Shown here piece after piece: positions 14,612 through 18,035 of a stretch of 64,000 nt of DNA (within the stretch, counting starts at the first letter, position 1; every line of letters starts with the position of its first letter). The translations under genes were made by a program, and so were the position numbers. The DNA lies in the NCBI GenBank assembly GCA_964592075.1, contig CAZQDY010000004.1, positions 16,527-80,526 of the forward strand, written 5' to 3'. The notes below the pieces were generated by a model that searched no databases, was not told the DNA's origin, and worked only from the letters and a program-made list of their open reading frames with translations. Source of the stretch: an uncultured Gaiellales bacterium (GTDB lineage Bacteria; Actinomycetota; Thermoleophilia; RBG-16-64-13).

Positions 14612-14658
14612 GACGAATGGCTAGACTAGATTACTCACGATTTAGACGAACGGCTAGA
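14612..14658 (+). promoter_or_regulatory. 14-nt direct repeats GACGAATGGCTAGA and GACGAACGGCTAGA (33 nt start-to-start) in the gdhA / methyltransferase divergent promoter region
   Basis: Read directly at 14612-14625 and 14645-14658. A small inverted repeat CGTCCgtgtctatGGACG and a TATCCT hexamer lie just upstream. The region is locally AT-richer. Confidence 0.35.
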
Positions 14659-14674
14659 GAAAGGTGAGAGTCAC

Positions 14675-15712
14675 ATGCGGACGTCGTTAGTGGACCGGCA
14701 AGCCATCGAGCGCCTGTTGCTCCTGGTGGGCGCACTACGTTCGGGCGTCATCGACGCTCTGGCGAGCGGGGAGGGACTGCCGGCCGGCCGGGTGGCCGGT
14801 CTTGCCGGGACTGACCCGAGGGCGACCGGCATCGTCCTGGAGGCGCTCGTCGCGGAGGAACTGGCCGAACGGGCCTCCGGCGAGCATGGCGATGCCCTGT
14901 ACCGGCTCACACGTCCGGCGCGGGCTCATCTTGTGGACGACGGCCCGGAGAGGGAGCGGTTCGAACTCCTCCACCAGGTCAGCAAGGTGTCCGGTTGGCT
15001 GGACCTGCACGAGGTGATCCGCACCGGCAGGGCGCGCGACCGGGGCGGGGTCAAGCGCGACCTGCGGACCATGGTGTCGGCCATGGGCGAACGCGAAGCG
15101 GCGGTACTAGACGAGATCGTCGAGCTTTGCTTCGCCTATGCCGGCGACATCCGCACCATGCTCGACGTCGGGGGCGCGGTGGGTCATCTTGCCCGCCATT
15201 TCTCCCGCAGGGGGGTCCGCGCCTCGCTCTTCGACCGCCCCGAGGTCCTGCCCGTGGCTCAAGAGTTTCTGGGCGCGGAGGCCGACGGCATCGAGTTGTT
15301 CGGGGGCGATCTGACGGCCGGGTTGCCGGACGGTCCGTTCGACCTGGTGTACTTTGGCAACGTGCTCCATATCTACAGCTCGGAGACCAACGTGCGGGTG
15401 GTAAGCGAGGCCTTCACCCTCACGGCGCCGGGAGGGACCATAGCCATCCAGGGCTATGTGGCGGAGCGCAGCCCGGTAGCGGCCATGTTCGCGGTGAACA
15501 TGCTGCGGTCCACCGACGAGGGCGGTGTGCGGAACGAGGCGGAGCACCGGCGTTGGCTGACCGAGGCCGGCTTCCGTGATGTGACCTTGTTCGATCTGGA
15601 CACCGACCGGACCCAGCTGATCCTGGCGAGGCGGCCGGCAGGTTTATCAAACCCGGTTGGCGGGCAGGTTCGGAGCAGCCCGGAGGGCCGCGGAGCCGAG
15701 GTGCGGGGGTAG
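14675..15712 (+). CDS. class I SAM-dependent O-methyltransferase (Methyltransf_2 family) with N-terminal winged-helix dimerisation domain
   Basis: SAM-binding region MLDVGGAVGHLARHFS...LFDRPEV...DLVYFGNVLHIYS. N-terminal wHTH-like ~90 aa. RBS aaaggtgag precedes the ATG. Confidence 0.7.
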   Translation: MRTSLVDRQAIERLLLLVGALRSGVIDALASGEGLPAGRVAGLAGTDPRATGIVLEALVAEELAERASGEHGDALYRLTRPARAHLVDDGPERERFELLHQVSKVSGWLDLHEVIRTGRARDRGGVKRDLRTMVSAMGEREAAVLDEIVELCFAYAGDIRTMLDVGGAVGHLARHFSRRGVRASLFDRPEVLPVAQEFLGAEADGIELFGGDLTAGLPDGPFDLVYFGNVLHIYSSETNVRVVSEAFTLTAPGGTIAIQGYVAERSPVAAMFAVNMLRSTDEGGVRNEAEHRRWLTEAGFRDVTLFDLDTDRTQLILARRPAGLSNPVGGQVRSSPEGRGAEVRG

Positions 15713-15723
15713 AGGAGGTAGGC

Positions 15724-16008
15724 ATGCCGGCAGTTCCGGATAACGAGGAGAGCAGGGCGAGCTGCGTTTGCGCCGCCTGCCCTTCGAAGCCTAAGGACGA
15801 CATGGTGTTCTACTGCGTGACGGGCAAGAGCCCGGCCGGGGTCGAGCGTGGATTCTGTGCCTGCAGCTGGTGCCCGGTCTGGAGCTGCTACGGACTCGCC
15901 GGGAGCTTCTACTGCGATGAAGGCCCGGTCCCCGACGACGGCCCGGTCCCCGATAACGAGGCGGTCCCCGACGACGGGGCGGCCGGTGAGCAAGACCTGA
16001 CCGAGTAG
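15724..16008 (+). CDS. small cysteine-rich DUF2769-like protein
   Basis: Pattern CVCAACPS...FYCVTGKS...CACSWCPV...YGL..FYC matches DUF2769 spacing as I recall it. C-terminal PVPDD/PVPDN/AVPDD tripartite repeat. Stop is 3 nt before the flavodiiron gene start. Confidence 0.55.
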   Translation: MPAVPDNEESRASCVCAACPSKPKDDMVFYCVTGKSPAGVERGFCACSWCPVWSCYGLAGSFYCDEGPVPDDGPVPDNEAVPDDGAAGEQDLTE

Positions 16009-16010
16009 GA

Positions 16011-17225
16011 GTGGGCATGGAGAGGTACCTGGTCAAAGACAACATCTGGTGGGTGGGGGCGATCGATTGGGACCGCCGCGACTTTCACGGCTACGACACC
16101 GTTCGAGGCACCACCTACAACGCGTACCTGATACTCGACGAGAAGGTCGCGCTCATTGACGGATGCCGGGACGGGTTCGGGGAGGAGATGCTGGCACGCG
16201 TCCGCGGCTGCTGCGGCCTGCGCCCCGTCGACTATGTGGTGATAAACCATGTGGAGCCCGATCACTCCGGAGCTCTGCCTATGTTGGTGGAGGAGCTCGG
16301 CCCGGAGCGCGTTCTCTGCTCCAAGCGGGCCAAAGACGCGCTGGCCCTGTACTACGGGACCGACATGGTGGAGGGCTGGGACCTCCGGATCGTGGCCACC
16401 GGAGACGAGCTCTCTCTGGGCCGGAACACGCTGCAGTTCATCGAGGCGCCGATGCTGCACTGGCCCGACAGCATGTTCACGTACGTCAAAGAGGCCAAGA
16501 CCCTGCTCCCCAACGATGCCTTCGGGCAGCATCTCGCCACCTCCAGGCGGTTTGTCGATGAGGTCGACATGAGCATCGTCATGGAGGAGGCCGGCAAGTA
16601 CTACGCCAACATACTCCTGCCCTTCGGCGGTCAGATCCAGAGGATGCTCGCCAAGATCGGCGAGATGGGGTTGGAGATCGAGGCGATCGGCCCCAGTCAC
16701 GGCGTCGTGTGGAGACGGCCGGAGGACGTCACCCGGATCGTGGAGGCGTACGCGGCCTGGAGCGCCTCCAAGGCCCCTGAGCGGGTCACGATCGTCTACG
16801 ACACCATGTGGCACGCCACCGAGAAGATGACCATGGCCATCGAGGATGGCGTGGCCCAAGAGGGAGTGGATTGCGCCGTACTCAGGATGAGCGTGAGCCC
16901 TCGCTCGGAGGCGATGCATCAGATTCTGCAGTCGCGGGCCTTTCTCGTGGGCTCGCCCACGCTCAACAACGGTGTCTTCCCCACCATCGGCGGGTTCCTG
17001 ACCTATCTCAAAGGCCTGCGGCCCAGGGACAGGATAGCGGGAGCTTATGGTTCGTGCGGATGGGCCGGTGGCGCGGTCAAGCAGATCGATTCCGACCTGC
17101 GGGAGATGGGTCTGGAGGTCATGGCTCCCATGGAGATCAAGTACATGCCGGGTCCCGACGAACTCGATGCATGTGTGCAGCTTGGACGTGAAGTGGCCCG
17201 CAAAGTGAAGGCCATGGGAGGTTGA
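16011..17225 (+). CDS. flavodiiron protein (FprA / type A flavoprotein; O2 and/or NO reductase)
   Basis: Metallo-beta-lactamase-like diiron domain (HVEPDHSGALP, DTVRGTTYNAYLILDEK) followed by a C-terminal flavodoxin-like domain. 404 aa. Confidence 0.85.
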   Translation: MGMERYLVKDNIWWVGAIDWDRRDFHGYDTVRGTTYNAYLILDEKVALIDGCRDGFGEEMLARVRGCCGLRPVDYVVINHVEPDHSGALPMLVEELGPERVLCSKRAKDALALYYGTDMVEGWDLRIVATGDELSLGRNTLQFIEAPMLHWPDSMFTYVKEAKTLLPNDAFGQHLATSRRFVDEVDMSIVMEEAGKYYANILLPFGGQIQRMLAKIGEMGLEIEAIGPSHGVVWRRPEDVTRIVEAYAAWSASKAPERVTIVYDTMWHATEKMTMAIEDGVAQEGVDCAVLRMSVSPRSEAMHQILQSRAFLVGSPTLNNGVFPTIGGFLTYLKGLRPRDRIAGAYGSCGWAGGAVKQIDSDLREMGLEVMAPMEIKYMPGPDELDACVQLGREVARKVKAMGG

Positions 17226-17229
17226 CCCC

Positions 17230-17835
17230 GTGGCGATGACCGTTCTGGGTCTGGCCGGCAGCCCCCGCAGAGGCGGCAACACCGAGACCCTTCTAGACTG
17301 GTGCCTTGCGGGGGCGCGCGCTCAGGGCGCTGTAGTGGTGAAGTTCAGCCTGTGTTCCCTGGATCTCCATGGGTGCCAAGCCTGCGACCGGTGCTGGAAG
17401 GACGGCAAGTGCATCGTCAAGGACGACATGCAGATGCTTTATCCTCACCTACGCAAGGCCGACTCCATCGTGCTGGCGGCGCCCACCTTCTTCCAAGGGA
17501 TGCCGGCGGTGCCCAAGATGATGGTCGACCGCTGCCAGTGTTTCTGGGCCCTGAAGTACGTTCTGCATCAGTCGCTTGCGGAGCCGGGGAGGCCGGAGAG
17601 GCTGGGAGCCTTCCTCAGTTGCTCCGCCACCAAGACGACGCACGCCTTCGATGGAAGCCTCACTATCGTGAAAAGCCTGTGGCACGTGCTGGATGTCACA
17701 CCGGCCGGCGAGTTGCTCTACGCGGGCGTGGACGGCAAGGGCGAGATAACGGAACAGCCCGGGGCGCAAGTGGCGGCGGAGACCATCGGCCGCCGTCTGG
17801 CGCGGGAACGCGAGGTCGAAAGGAAGGACACGTGA
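17230..17835 (+). CDS. iron-sulfur flavoprotein (Isf) / NADPH-dependent FMN reductase family
   Basis: Flavodoxin-like N-terminus VLGLAGSPRRGGNTETL. Compact Cys motif CQACDRCWKDGKC (C-x2-C-x2-C-x5-C), typical of Isf proteins. Confidence 0.7.
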   Translation: MAMTVLGLAGSPRRGGNTETLLDWCLAGARAQGAVVVKFSLCSLDLHGCQACDRCWKDGKCIVKDDMQMLYPHLRKADSIVLAAPTFFQGMPAVPKMMVDRCQCFWALKYVLHQSLAEPGRPERLGAFLSCSATKTTHAFDGSLTIVKSLWHVLDVTPAGELLYAGVDGKGEITEQPGAQVAAETIGRRLAREREVERKDT

Positions 17836-18035
17836 GCGACGAAGTCAAGACCTGCATAAGCTGCGGCAAGCCGCTCGCCGACCGCGTGGAGGAGGAGGAG
17901 CGGACCGGCACGGGTGGAAGTCTCTCCACGGGCGAGTGCAGCACCTACAGGGTGTGGTTCTGCGTCAACAGCGAGTGCGTGATGTTCAACACCGACATCT
18001 ATAAGGAGTCGATTGCCGATCGCTCGGACCGGTGA
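17832..18035 (+). CDS. small Zn-ribbon-like protein (67 aa), GTG start overlapping the Isf stop (GTGA)
   Basis: Absent as a separate entry in the ORF track; it is the tail of a 244-aa nonsense ORF. RBS AGGAAGGA sits 4 nt upstream of GTG. Cys pattern TCISCGKP...ECSTYRVWFCVNSEC. Confidence 0.35.
   Translation: MSDEVKTCISCGKPLADRVEEEERTGTGGSLSTGECSTYRVWFCVNSECVMFNTDIYKESIADRSDR

Follow-up and report, generated by a model that had tools for sequence, protein, structure and literature searches.

Positions 14513 to 18325 of a 64-kb stretch of DNA, hereafter called the window, are predicted to hold a six-gene operon that encodes an O-methyltransferase (MT), a DUF2769 protein, a class-A flavodiiron protein (FDP), an Isf-type flavoprotein, a 67-amino-acid (aa) protein designated Znr67, and a PspC-domain protein. 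The host is an uncultured anaerobic-digester bacterium of the Actinomycetota, labeled Thermoleophilia at NCBI. The genes, and one repeat tract within them, are as follows.

14675–15712, forward strand: family-2 (COMT/ASMT-type) S-adenosylmethionine (SAM)-dependent O-methyltransferase, the first gene of the conserved core
15724–16008, forward strand: small Cys-rich DUF2769 protein, 11 nt after MT, an optional member of the cluster
15922–15975, forward strand: three 18-nt tandem units encoding GPVPDD/GPVPDN/EAVPDD in the tail of the DUF2769 protein
16017–17225, forward strand: class-A flavodiiron protein (FprA/ROO type) with ODP and Flavodoxin_1 domains
17230–17835, forward strand: Isf-type iron-sulfur flavoprotein with an FMN_red fold and a CX2CX2CX5C motif, 4 nt after FDP
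17832–18035, forward strand: Znr67, with five conserved Cys (C8, C11, C36, C44, and C49), its start overlapping the Isf stop (GTGA, −4 nt)
18097–18303, forward strand: small PspC-domain membrane protein, the sixth gene, 61 nt after Znr67

The coordinates and features of the first five genes, described in an initial annotation of this DNA as tightly packed, were confirmed: the open reading frames (ORFs) from MT to Znr67 are co-directional, and the measured gaps of 11, 2 or 8, 4, and −4 nt fall between −4 and 11 nt. The second gap depends on which start codon FDP uses: a GTG at 16011 is possible, but the ATG at 16017, which AGGAG precedes by 8 nt, is more likely, and FDP is 402 aa long in public gene calls. 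The PspC gene lies downstream of the cluster in most relatives and is probably the last gene of the operon. The enzymes are all of known kinds, and three products have already been named by public annotation, as “FprA family A-type flavoprotein,” “flavodoxin family protein,” and “DUF2769 domain-containing protein.” The same proteins were found in anaerobic-digester and bioreactor metagenomes, and the proteins also occur in NCBI metagenome-assembled genomes (MAGs) labeled Thermoleophilia or Actinomycetota.

The 402-aa FDP matched ODP with 65.1 bits and Flavodoxin_1 with 49.0 bits, and its best match in the PDB was 1YCF, the FprA of Moorella, over the full length (6.8e-120). All seven diiron ligands of the family (H-x-E-x-D-H ... 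H ... D ... H) are present, as H78, E80, D82, H83, H148, D167, and H228. By its sequence, the protein is a canonical class-A enzyme with no extra modules. Enzymes of this family reduce O2 to water and/or NO to N2O at a diiron-flavin mononucleotide (FMN) site, and to our knowledge only a few kinds of electron donor are known for them, namely, rubredoxin, F420H2, and fused domains. No rubredoxin was found in the 64-kb window with the query sequences used, and neither in the window nor in eight relatives did one lie less than 6 kb from the cluster; over that distance, the earlier remark that FDP is not paired with rubredoxin was borne out. As a comparison set, we used the 74 nearest FDP loci outside the clade, at 43–48% identity; at 49 of them, FDP adjoins a co-directional rubredoxin gene. 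An Isf-like gene occurred on the same strand at 16 of the 74 loci, mostly within about 2 kb, and at none on the opposite strand; the Isf Cys motif was present in 13 of these 16 genes, and typical orders were Isf-flavodoxin-rubredoxin-FDP and rubredoxin-FDP-rubrerythrin-Isf. Because of this linkage to FDP at distant loci, Isf is a recurrent member of oxidant-defense clusters. The initial suggestion that Isf is an electron partner of FDP therefore holds insofar as the linkage recurs far outside the clade, but Isf is neither dedicated to FDP, being present in the FDP-less loci L106–L108 and L097, nor specific to this locus.

Conservation within the clade was followed in 13 contexts: the window; a second haplotype (L002, L096, L098, and L099), with an MT 91% identical to that of the window; six loci from GTDB MAGs (L011–L015 and L035); L100; L097; L106–L108; the P0094 contig; and the P0078 contig. 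This sampling is biased, as the loci were found via FDP, Znr67, or DUF2769. The operon-like cluster recurs in no fewer than 12 other contexts of the clade, so that the gene arrangement is conserved in related genomes. MT, Isf, and Znr67 were present in all 13 contexts in constant order, and FDP was present in 10; the three contexts found via Znr67 had MT and Isf in every case and FDP in two. The arrangement MT-FDP-Isf-Znr67-PspC is kept in the six GTDB MAG loci at 53–81% protein identity, and the cluster is also kept in L100, L097, L098/L099, L106–L108, and the P0094 and P0078 contigs. MT, Isf, and Znr67 thus constitute the evolutionarily stable core, and FDP, DUF2769, rubrerythrin, and a selenocysteine (Sec)-containing rhodanese fusion are modules gained or lost between lineages. 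On the P0094 contig, a rubrerythrin, an ArsR-type regulator, and a Pyr_redox_2/Zn-ribbon protein have been inserted into the cluster. The sister species at L106–L108 (GCA_012523095.1; 4001–4240) has the order MT-DUF2769-Isf-Znr67-PspC-SelD and lacks FDP. Between DUF2769 and Isf in L107, about 35 nt can still be recognized as the 3′ end of FDP, and because this stump survives, the loss of FDP there is secondary; the deletion also took the DUF2769 tail. Isf, Znr67, and MT of L107 are 90%, 94%, and 77% identical, respectively, to those of the window.

Isf matched FMN_red (PF03358) with 66.4 bits and carries the motif C49-x2-C52-x2-C55-x5-C61 (CQACDRCWKDGKC, residues 49–61). In Isf proteins, a compact CX2CX2CX5-7C motif ligates a [4Fe-4S] cluster, and these proteins have been proposed to reduce O2 and H2O2 (PMC3164229). 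No similarity of the window protein to any Isf structure was detectable at E ≤ 1e-3. Znr67, initially called unannotated, indeed matched no Pfam or NCBIfam family, but public assemblies do call the gene, as a “hypothetical protein.” Its homologues form 95 clusters of 64–100% identity, and a profile search of 1.84 billion representatives returned 14 proteins, nearly all close relatives. Between species, identity was 70–81% for Znr67, 60–69% for Isf, and 53–58% for MT. Znr67 is a clade-restricted orphan family and a real, constrained gene. It directly follows Isf in every context examined, and given this constant position, together with the stop/start overlap in the window, it is the most likely physical partner of Isf; by position, it is also a better candidate carrier than the DUF2769 protein.

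Whether Znr67 carries electrons has to be weighed against a reading that we rate as quite possible, if somewhat short of even, namely, that it is a zinc-ribbon accessory, acting as a thiol redox switch or as an assembly or stability factor for Isf. Its CxxC...C...Cx4C pattern and the three-stranded sheet of its AlphaFold model (pLDDT 73.7) would suit a zinc ribbon as well as an iron site, and the protein stays with Isf when FDP is lost. Similarity to rubredoxin is also missing: hhalign against 15 rubredoxins gave a probability of 2.2%, and the second of its knuckles, Cx4C, departs from the CxxCG/CPxCG form. The structure search returned no significant neighbor, the top Foldseek match, itself not significant (E = 1), being a human ribosome-translocon chain. 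However, an invariant acidic DRVEEEERTG motif and a fifth invariant Cys would be unusual for a purely structural ribbon, and Znr67 stands where related clusters have rubredoxin.

The DUF2769 assignment, whose failure against a profile had been named beforehand as a possible refutation of the initial annotation, was upheld at 32.0 bits versus the Pfam cut-off of 22.8 (PF10967). Eight Cys (C14, C16, C19, C31, C45, C47, C50, and C64) are invariant in 50 DUF2769 sequences and form two CxCxxC...C halves. The C-terminal PVPDD repeat noted at the outset is present as three 18-nt units; among strains of one 90%-identity cluster, the tail has from none to three units, with lengths of 68–94 aa, and is a strain-level expansion. 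The proposal that DUF2769 delivers electrons to FDP was not supported by the comparison. DUF2769 was found in 7 of the 13 clade contexts and was missing from the other 6 (L012–L015, L035, and the P0078 contig), and no DUF2769-like ORF occurred at any of the 74 distant FDP loci; outside the clade, FDP was thus accompanied by Isf, at 16 of the 74, but not by DUF2769. Comparison of DUF2769 with 15 rubredoxins by hhalign gave a probability of 0.1%, no relative was found in the PDB, and the AlphaFold model (pLDDT 50.6) was unusable. The protein is best described as a small metal-binding module and here as an optional passenger, and the tempting idea of DUF2769 as a partner of FDP was removed as unsupported. 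One DUF2769 member in M. mazei was detected only under heat stress (PMC12704099).

Outside the clade, DUF2769 genes were found after cydAB, in an arsenic cluster, and after RACo (corrinoid activase); other contexts were uninformative. The arsenic cluster (L104, 4519–8395) contains a frameshifted MerA/RclA-like flavoprotein disulfide reductase, an ACR3 fragment, and an ArsM (319.8 bits versus a cut-off of 263). Its DUF2769 gene sits between the MerA-like reductase and a rhodanese gene, the start of which it overlaps, an arrangement of translational coupling. Because of this arrangement, DUF2769 lies beside a rhodanese and a methyltransferase in two unrelated clusters, and this neighborhood is so far the sole functional lead for the family. 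A 376-aa protein encoded upstream of DUF2769 in L101 was considered as a homologue of the rhodanese fusion described below and proved unrelated by comparison.

MT matched Methyltransf_2 (PF00891) with 54.7 bits versus a cut-off of 22.3. The dimerization domain (PF08100) scored 21.6 bits, under its cut-off of 25.6; nonetheless, the PDB alignments begin at residues 17–20. SAM motif I reads LDVGGAVG (residues 163–170), and the closest PDB relatives are MfnG and ASMT. His232, in VLHIYSSE, stands with its LHIY at the position of the LHDW motif and is a candidate catalytic base by analogy with plant COMT structures. MT was also considered as a regulator of the operon and rejected, since its N-terminal winged helix is the standard dimerization domain of the enzyme family. 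An ArsM identity was likewise ruled out (19.9 bits versus a cut-off of 240).

In L011–L013, L097, and L100, a protein of about 445 aa with a C-terminal rhodanese domain is encoded directly upstream of MT, and a remnant of it was found in L014. Its N-terminal part matched no family, and the C-terminal domain reads LYCNGFT-TGA-EAS; in L011, the gene spans 3273–4616, with the TGA at 4497–4499. The DNA after this TGA is nearly identical between species and forms a stable hairpin (z −2.7 and −4.5) resembling a selenocysteine insertion sequence, and the fusion looks like a Sec-containing protein. The C-x4-U motif of the fusion is not that of the NCBIfam “LYCAU” rhodanese selenoprotein. A search of the window found no rhodanese fusion, no Fur-like regulator, and no counterpart of a 142-aa membrane protein of the relatives; most simply, the rhodanese gene was lost in the window species.

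These neighbors bear on the main rival account of the cluster, in which the core would be a redox-and-methylation module for thiols or metalloids (sulfur, selenium, or arsenic), with FDP and rubrerythrin as passengers. In this account, MT, the Sec-rhodanese fusion of the relatives, DUF2769, Isf as an FMN reductase-type protein, and Znr67 would together process some reactive form of sulfur, selenium, or a metalloid. MT, Isf, and Znr67 are the sole invariant genes, two lineages lack FDP, and MT directly follows the Sec-type rhodanese fusion in the five loci just named. A Sec-containing SelD is encoded 73 nt to about 3.5 kb downstream wherever the loci extend far enough, and DUF2769 in L104 is coupled to a rhodanese within a MerA-like/ACR3/ArsM cluster. 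Nevertheless, MT belongs to COMT/ASMT family 2 and scored far under the ArsM cut-off, the flavoprotein carries the Isf [4Fe-4S] motif, which is missing in ArsH and ChrR-type FMN reductases, FDP is retained in 10 of the 13 contexts, rubrerythrin joins one cluster, and the window itself has lost the rhodanese gene. We consider such a module an unlikely explanation.

The region upstream of MT contains the following elements.

14513–14674, no strand assigned: divergent gdhA-MT intergenic region, 56.8% GC versus 66.3% for the window, with locally duplicated modules
14553–14568, forward strand: CTTCCGTGTATCCTGA, including TATCCT (14560–14565), identical at 16 of 16 positions to the DNA upstream of MT in L107
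14585–14593 and 14601–14609, no strand assigned: imperfect inverted repeat TAGGCACGG-N7-CCGTGTCTA, 8 of 9 positions complementary, read directly from the sequence
14612–14625, forward strand: direct repeat copy 1, GACGAATGGCTAGA, with a 13-nt core unchanged in the second haplotype
14645–14658, forward strand: direct repeat copy 2, GACGAACGGCTAGA, ending 3 nt before the Shine-Dalgarno sequence AGGTGA (14662–14667)

Both GACGAAYGGCTAGA direct repeats, 33 nt apart from start to start, were found as described, as were the TATCCT hexamer and the small inverted repeat. No further copy occurred at 0 or 1 mismatch elsewhere in the 64-kb window, and one match with 2 mismatches was found at 341–354. The window contains eight local direct repeats of such quality versus 1.3 ± 1.2 in shuffles, an excess of about six-fold, and two of the other seven are the PVPDD codons; the expectation for such a repeat in a 160-nt spacer is about 0.003. 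CTTCCGTGTATCCTGA is a candidate −10 region of the operon. In L107, where TATCCT lies 44 nt from the MT ATG, the upstream region shares with the window TATCCT, the 9-nt core ACGAACGGC (ACGAAYGGC) in inverted orientation, AGGCACGGT, and the surroundings of the ribosome-binding site. The gene that precedes MT there encodes a Peptidase_M23, with no REC-PPDK or gdhA gene between the two; where relatives have the longer arrangement, MT comes straight after the rhodanese gene, without a promoter-sized gap. Four copies of the GACGAA hexamer, versus an expected 0.29, lie ahead of the first gene of the cluster in L011, L100, and L097. In our reading, the DNA upstream of the cluster probably includes a conserved cis element with (G/T)ACGAAYGG, and the window carries it in duplicate because its spacer grew by duplication. 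The direct repeats, placed between TATCCT and the ribosome-binding site, are probably the operator for a regulator of the cluster. The repeats themselves are a local, species-level feature.

Alternatively, the repeats may have no dedicated regulator and be neutral by-products of duplication, or part of the gdhA promoter, a possibility that we regard as real but would not favor. The window spacer is about 70 nt longer than that of L107 between TATCCT and the ribosome-binding site, and it has two sets of local duplications, the direct repeats 33 nt apart and a second module, GCGCTTCCGTGT / GCTCGTCCGTGT, 45 nt apart; L107 has no tandem copies. The full 13/14-mer is found in one species only and is absent both from more distant relatives and elsewhere in the window. 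A single sigma-70-like promoter was found, directly adjoining copy 1: TAGACA-17-TAGTAT on the minus strand (14609→14581), which overlaps the inverted repeat and would serve gdhA. No DNA-binding regulator was found among the 10 flanking ORFs scanned, and the window has no counterpart of the Fur/PerR-like gene that relatives carry close to the cluster. Against this, all 13 substitutions between the two haplotypes fall in the MT-proximal 90 nt and none in the two 13-nt cores (P about 0.01, post hoc), although with two haplotypes only and the whole spacer considered, 0 substitutions in 26 nt has a P of about 0.13. Moreover, the ACGAACGGC core stands upstream of MT in L107 where gdhA is absent, GACGAA is enriched in the three further lineages, and, with 33 nt between their starts, the two copies face the same side of the DNA helix. 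An operator remains our preferred reading of the repeats. They are not known to resemble the operators of NorR, PerR, HcpR, or NsrR.

Several other observations were made on this spacer. CTAG is depleted about five-fold in the 64 kb (39 copies versus 199 expected from base composition), and 4 of the 39 crowd into the 90 nt upstream of MT (14580–14670). A search of the leader for RNA elements with Rfam at E ≤ 1 gave only a spurious microRNA match inside MT. A metagenome scan for the paired repeat returned the same locus in other strains and two unrelated tandem arrays (L091; L093/L095). In L093 (524–582) and L095 (1824–1882), three 23-nt direct repeats (TTCACTAGACGAACGGCTAGC) containing the 13-mer of the window are flanked by a TetR-family gene and an MMPL-like transporter gene and adjoin a perfect palindrome, CTAGTGAGTCACTAG. 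This TetR protein was set aside as a candidate regulator of the window cluster: it has no homologue in the window, and tandem arrays can match a 13-mer by chance.

On the whole, we lean slightly toward reading these genes as a six-gene, rubredoxin-less operon for defense against oxidants (O2, H2O2, and NO) with an Isf-Znr67 pair and operator repeats. FDP would use its diiron-FMN site to turn O2 into water and/or NO into N2O. Isf, with FMN and [4Fe-4S], would draw low-potential electrons from ferredoxin or NAD(P)H and would then reduce O2 or H2O2 itself and/or hand the electrons on. Znr67, placed by gene order alone in the position of the small carrier, may act as a metal-thiolate partner of Isf. 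Oxidants would induce the operon, and the two repeats, situated within the promoter or shortly after it, may be sites of the repressor type. The O2/NO-stress role proposed by the initial annotation is thus plausible, in that relatives add rubrerythrin and Isf occurs in rubredoxin-FDP-rubrerythrin clusters, but not with DUF2769 as a partner. A bolder version, that Isf and Znr67 form a new rubredoxin-independent electron-input module that feeds FDP and detoxifies O2 and H2O2 alone where FDP is missing, that Znr67 founds a metal-thiolate redox family confined to anaerobic Actinomycetota, and that the GACGAAYGG sites are the operator, seems improbable as a whole.

Several observations weigh against the oxidant-defense reading. 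L097 and L106–L108 keep MT-DUF2769-Isf-Znr67 without FDP; because FDP is dispensable, the conserved core may serve another purpose. We know of no established place for a methyltransferase in oxidant defense, and synteny that is confined to a single narrow clade is a poor guide to functional coupling. Znr67 has Cx4C as its second knuckle, and its sequence is compatible with Zn and Fe alike. At the promoter, the restriction of the full repeat to one species counts on the same side, and the repeats could be neutral because the region visibly grew by duplication. The GACGAA sites of the relatives vary in orientation and position, some of them overlapping ribosome-binding sites, and folding of the 119-nt leader was no more stable than that of shuffled sequences (z −0.9), with no sign of a structured RNA.

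Two hairpins and a selenoprotein gene accompany the 3′ end of the cluster.

18040–18060, forward strand: hairpin CCCACCG-N7-CGGTGGG between Znr67 and PspC (z −1.7), without a U-tract
18306–18325, forward strand: terminator-like hairpin CCCGC-CGCG-GCGGG followed by TCTTTA, read directly from the sequence

The first hairpin may be a transcription attenuator. The second was not called by the motif scan, having only 4 T in 8. Beyond it, SelD (selenophosphate synthetase; 18377–19453, ATG at 18377) reads MSDIPRLTTLSHGSG-U-ACK through an in-frame TGA at 18422–18424, and a 7-bp hairpin lies 16 nt downstream of this TGA; because of the read-through and the hairpin, SelD is read as a selenoprotein itself, from an organism that makes use of selenocysteine. 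Its length is cut to 326–339 aa in ORF lists and in some of the public gene calls. In relatives (L011, 8265–11612; L097; L100; and the P0078 contig), a cbiM-cbiQ-cbiO transporter and the Fur/PerR-like regulator lie between PspC and SelD. This regulator scored best against the Fur and PerR models, under both cut-offs, and the whole block is missing from the window (18304–18376), L035, and L106–L108. On the other side of the cluster, a 1004-aa protein on the minus strand (10124–13138) has a receiver-like (REC-like) N terminus and a PPDK_N (phosphoenolpyruvate-utilizing, ATP-binding) domain, and such a protein adjoins gdhA in L100 too. Elsewhere in the window, about six imperfect 15- to 16-nt tandem units (CCGTGRSCCCYTC-like) occupy 50020–50110 in an intergenic region between an ORF ending at 50004 and an ORF starting at 50169, and a direct repeat, GGGGTTTCTCCGAAAGGG / GGGTTTTCTCCGAAAAGG, with 15-nt spacing, lies at 34077–34110.

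Throughout this clade of uncultured anaerobic Actinomycetota, which are common in digesters, the FDP cluster is thus without rubredoxin and always has Isf and an orphan five-Cys mini-protein. Neither a rubredoxin-less FDP cluster with an obligate Isf-Znr67 pair nor the Znr67 family was found described in the literature searched. The closest solved structure to the window FDP is that of Moorella thermoacetica FprA (1YCF), with the same diiron ligand set. Moorella FprA is reduced by the high-molecular-weight rubredoxin Hrb, encoded in the same operon, whereas the window has no Hrb or rubredoxin domain. As for the DUF2769 protein, it exceeds the Pfam gathering threshold of PF10967 and has all eight invariant Cys; it differs from the family in its strain-specific acidic PVPDD tail. 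The rd-roo and rbo-rub-roo operons of Desulfovibrio and the Isf/rubredoxin/FDP clusters seen in Thermodesulfobacteriota, Omnitrophota, and related MAGs (L018–L031, L052, L080, and L089) share with the window a class-A FDP, at 43–48% identity, in a co-directional oxidant-defense cluster that often includes an Isf-type flavoprotein with the same Cys motif, and the ROO of D. gigas guards against O2 and NO (PMC4287179). Unlike these clusters, the window has no rubredoxin, flavodoxin, desulfoferrodoxin, or rubrerythrin, it has an O-methyltransferase, DUF2769, the orphan Znr67, and PspC instead, and no NorR- or PerR-type regulator adjoins it. The prototype of the Isf family, from Methanosarcina thermophila, has the FMN_red fold and the compact Cys motif in common with the window protein (PMC3164229), which differs in being always paired with Znr67. 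Finally, in the canonical chain of Thermococcales and clostridia, electrons pass from NROR through rubredoxin to FDP, rubrerythrin, or superoxide reductase (PMC13333549). That chain resembles the window cluster in combining a flavoprotein reductase, a small Cys-metal carrier, and a terminal reductase of oxidants, and the P0094 contig has a Pyr_redox_2 protein with a Zn-ribbon beside Isf; the window, in contrast, appears to put Isf, with FMN and [4Fe-4S], in the reductase slot and an unrelated five-Cys protein in the carrier slot.

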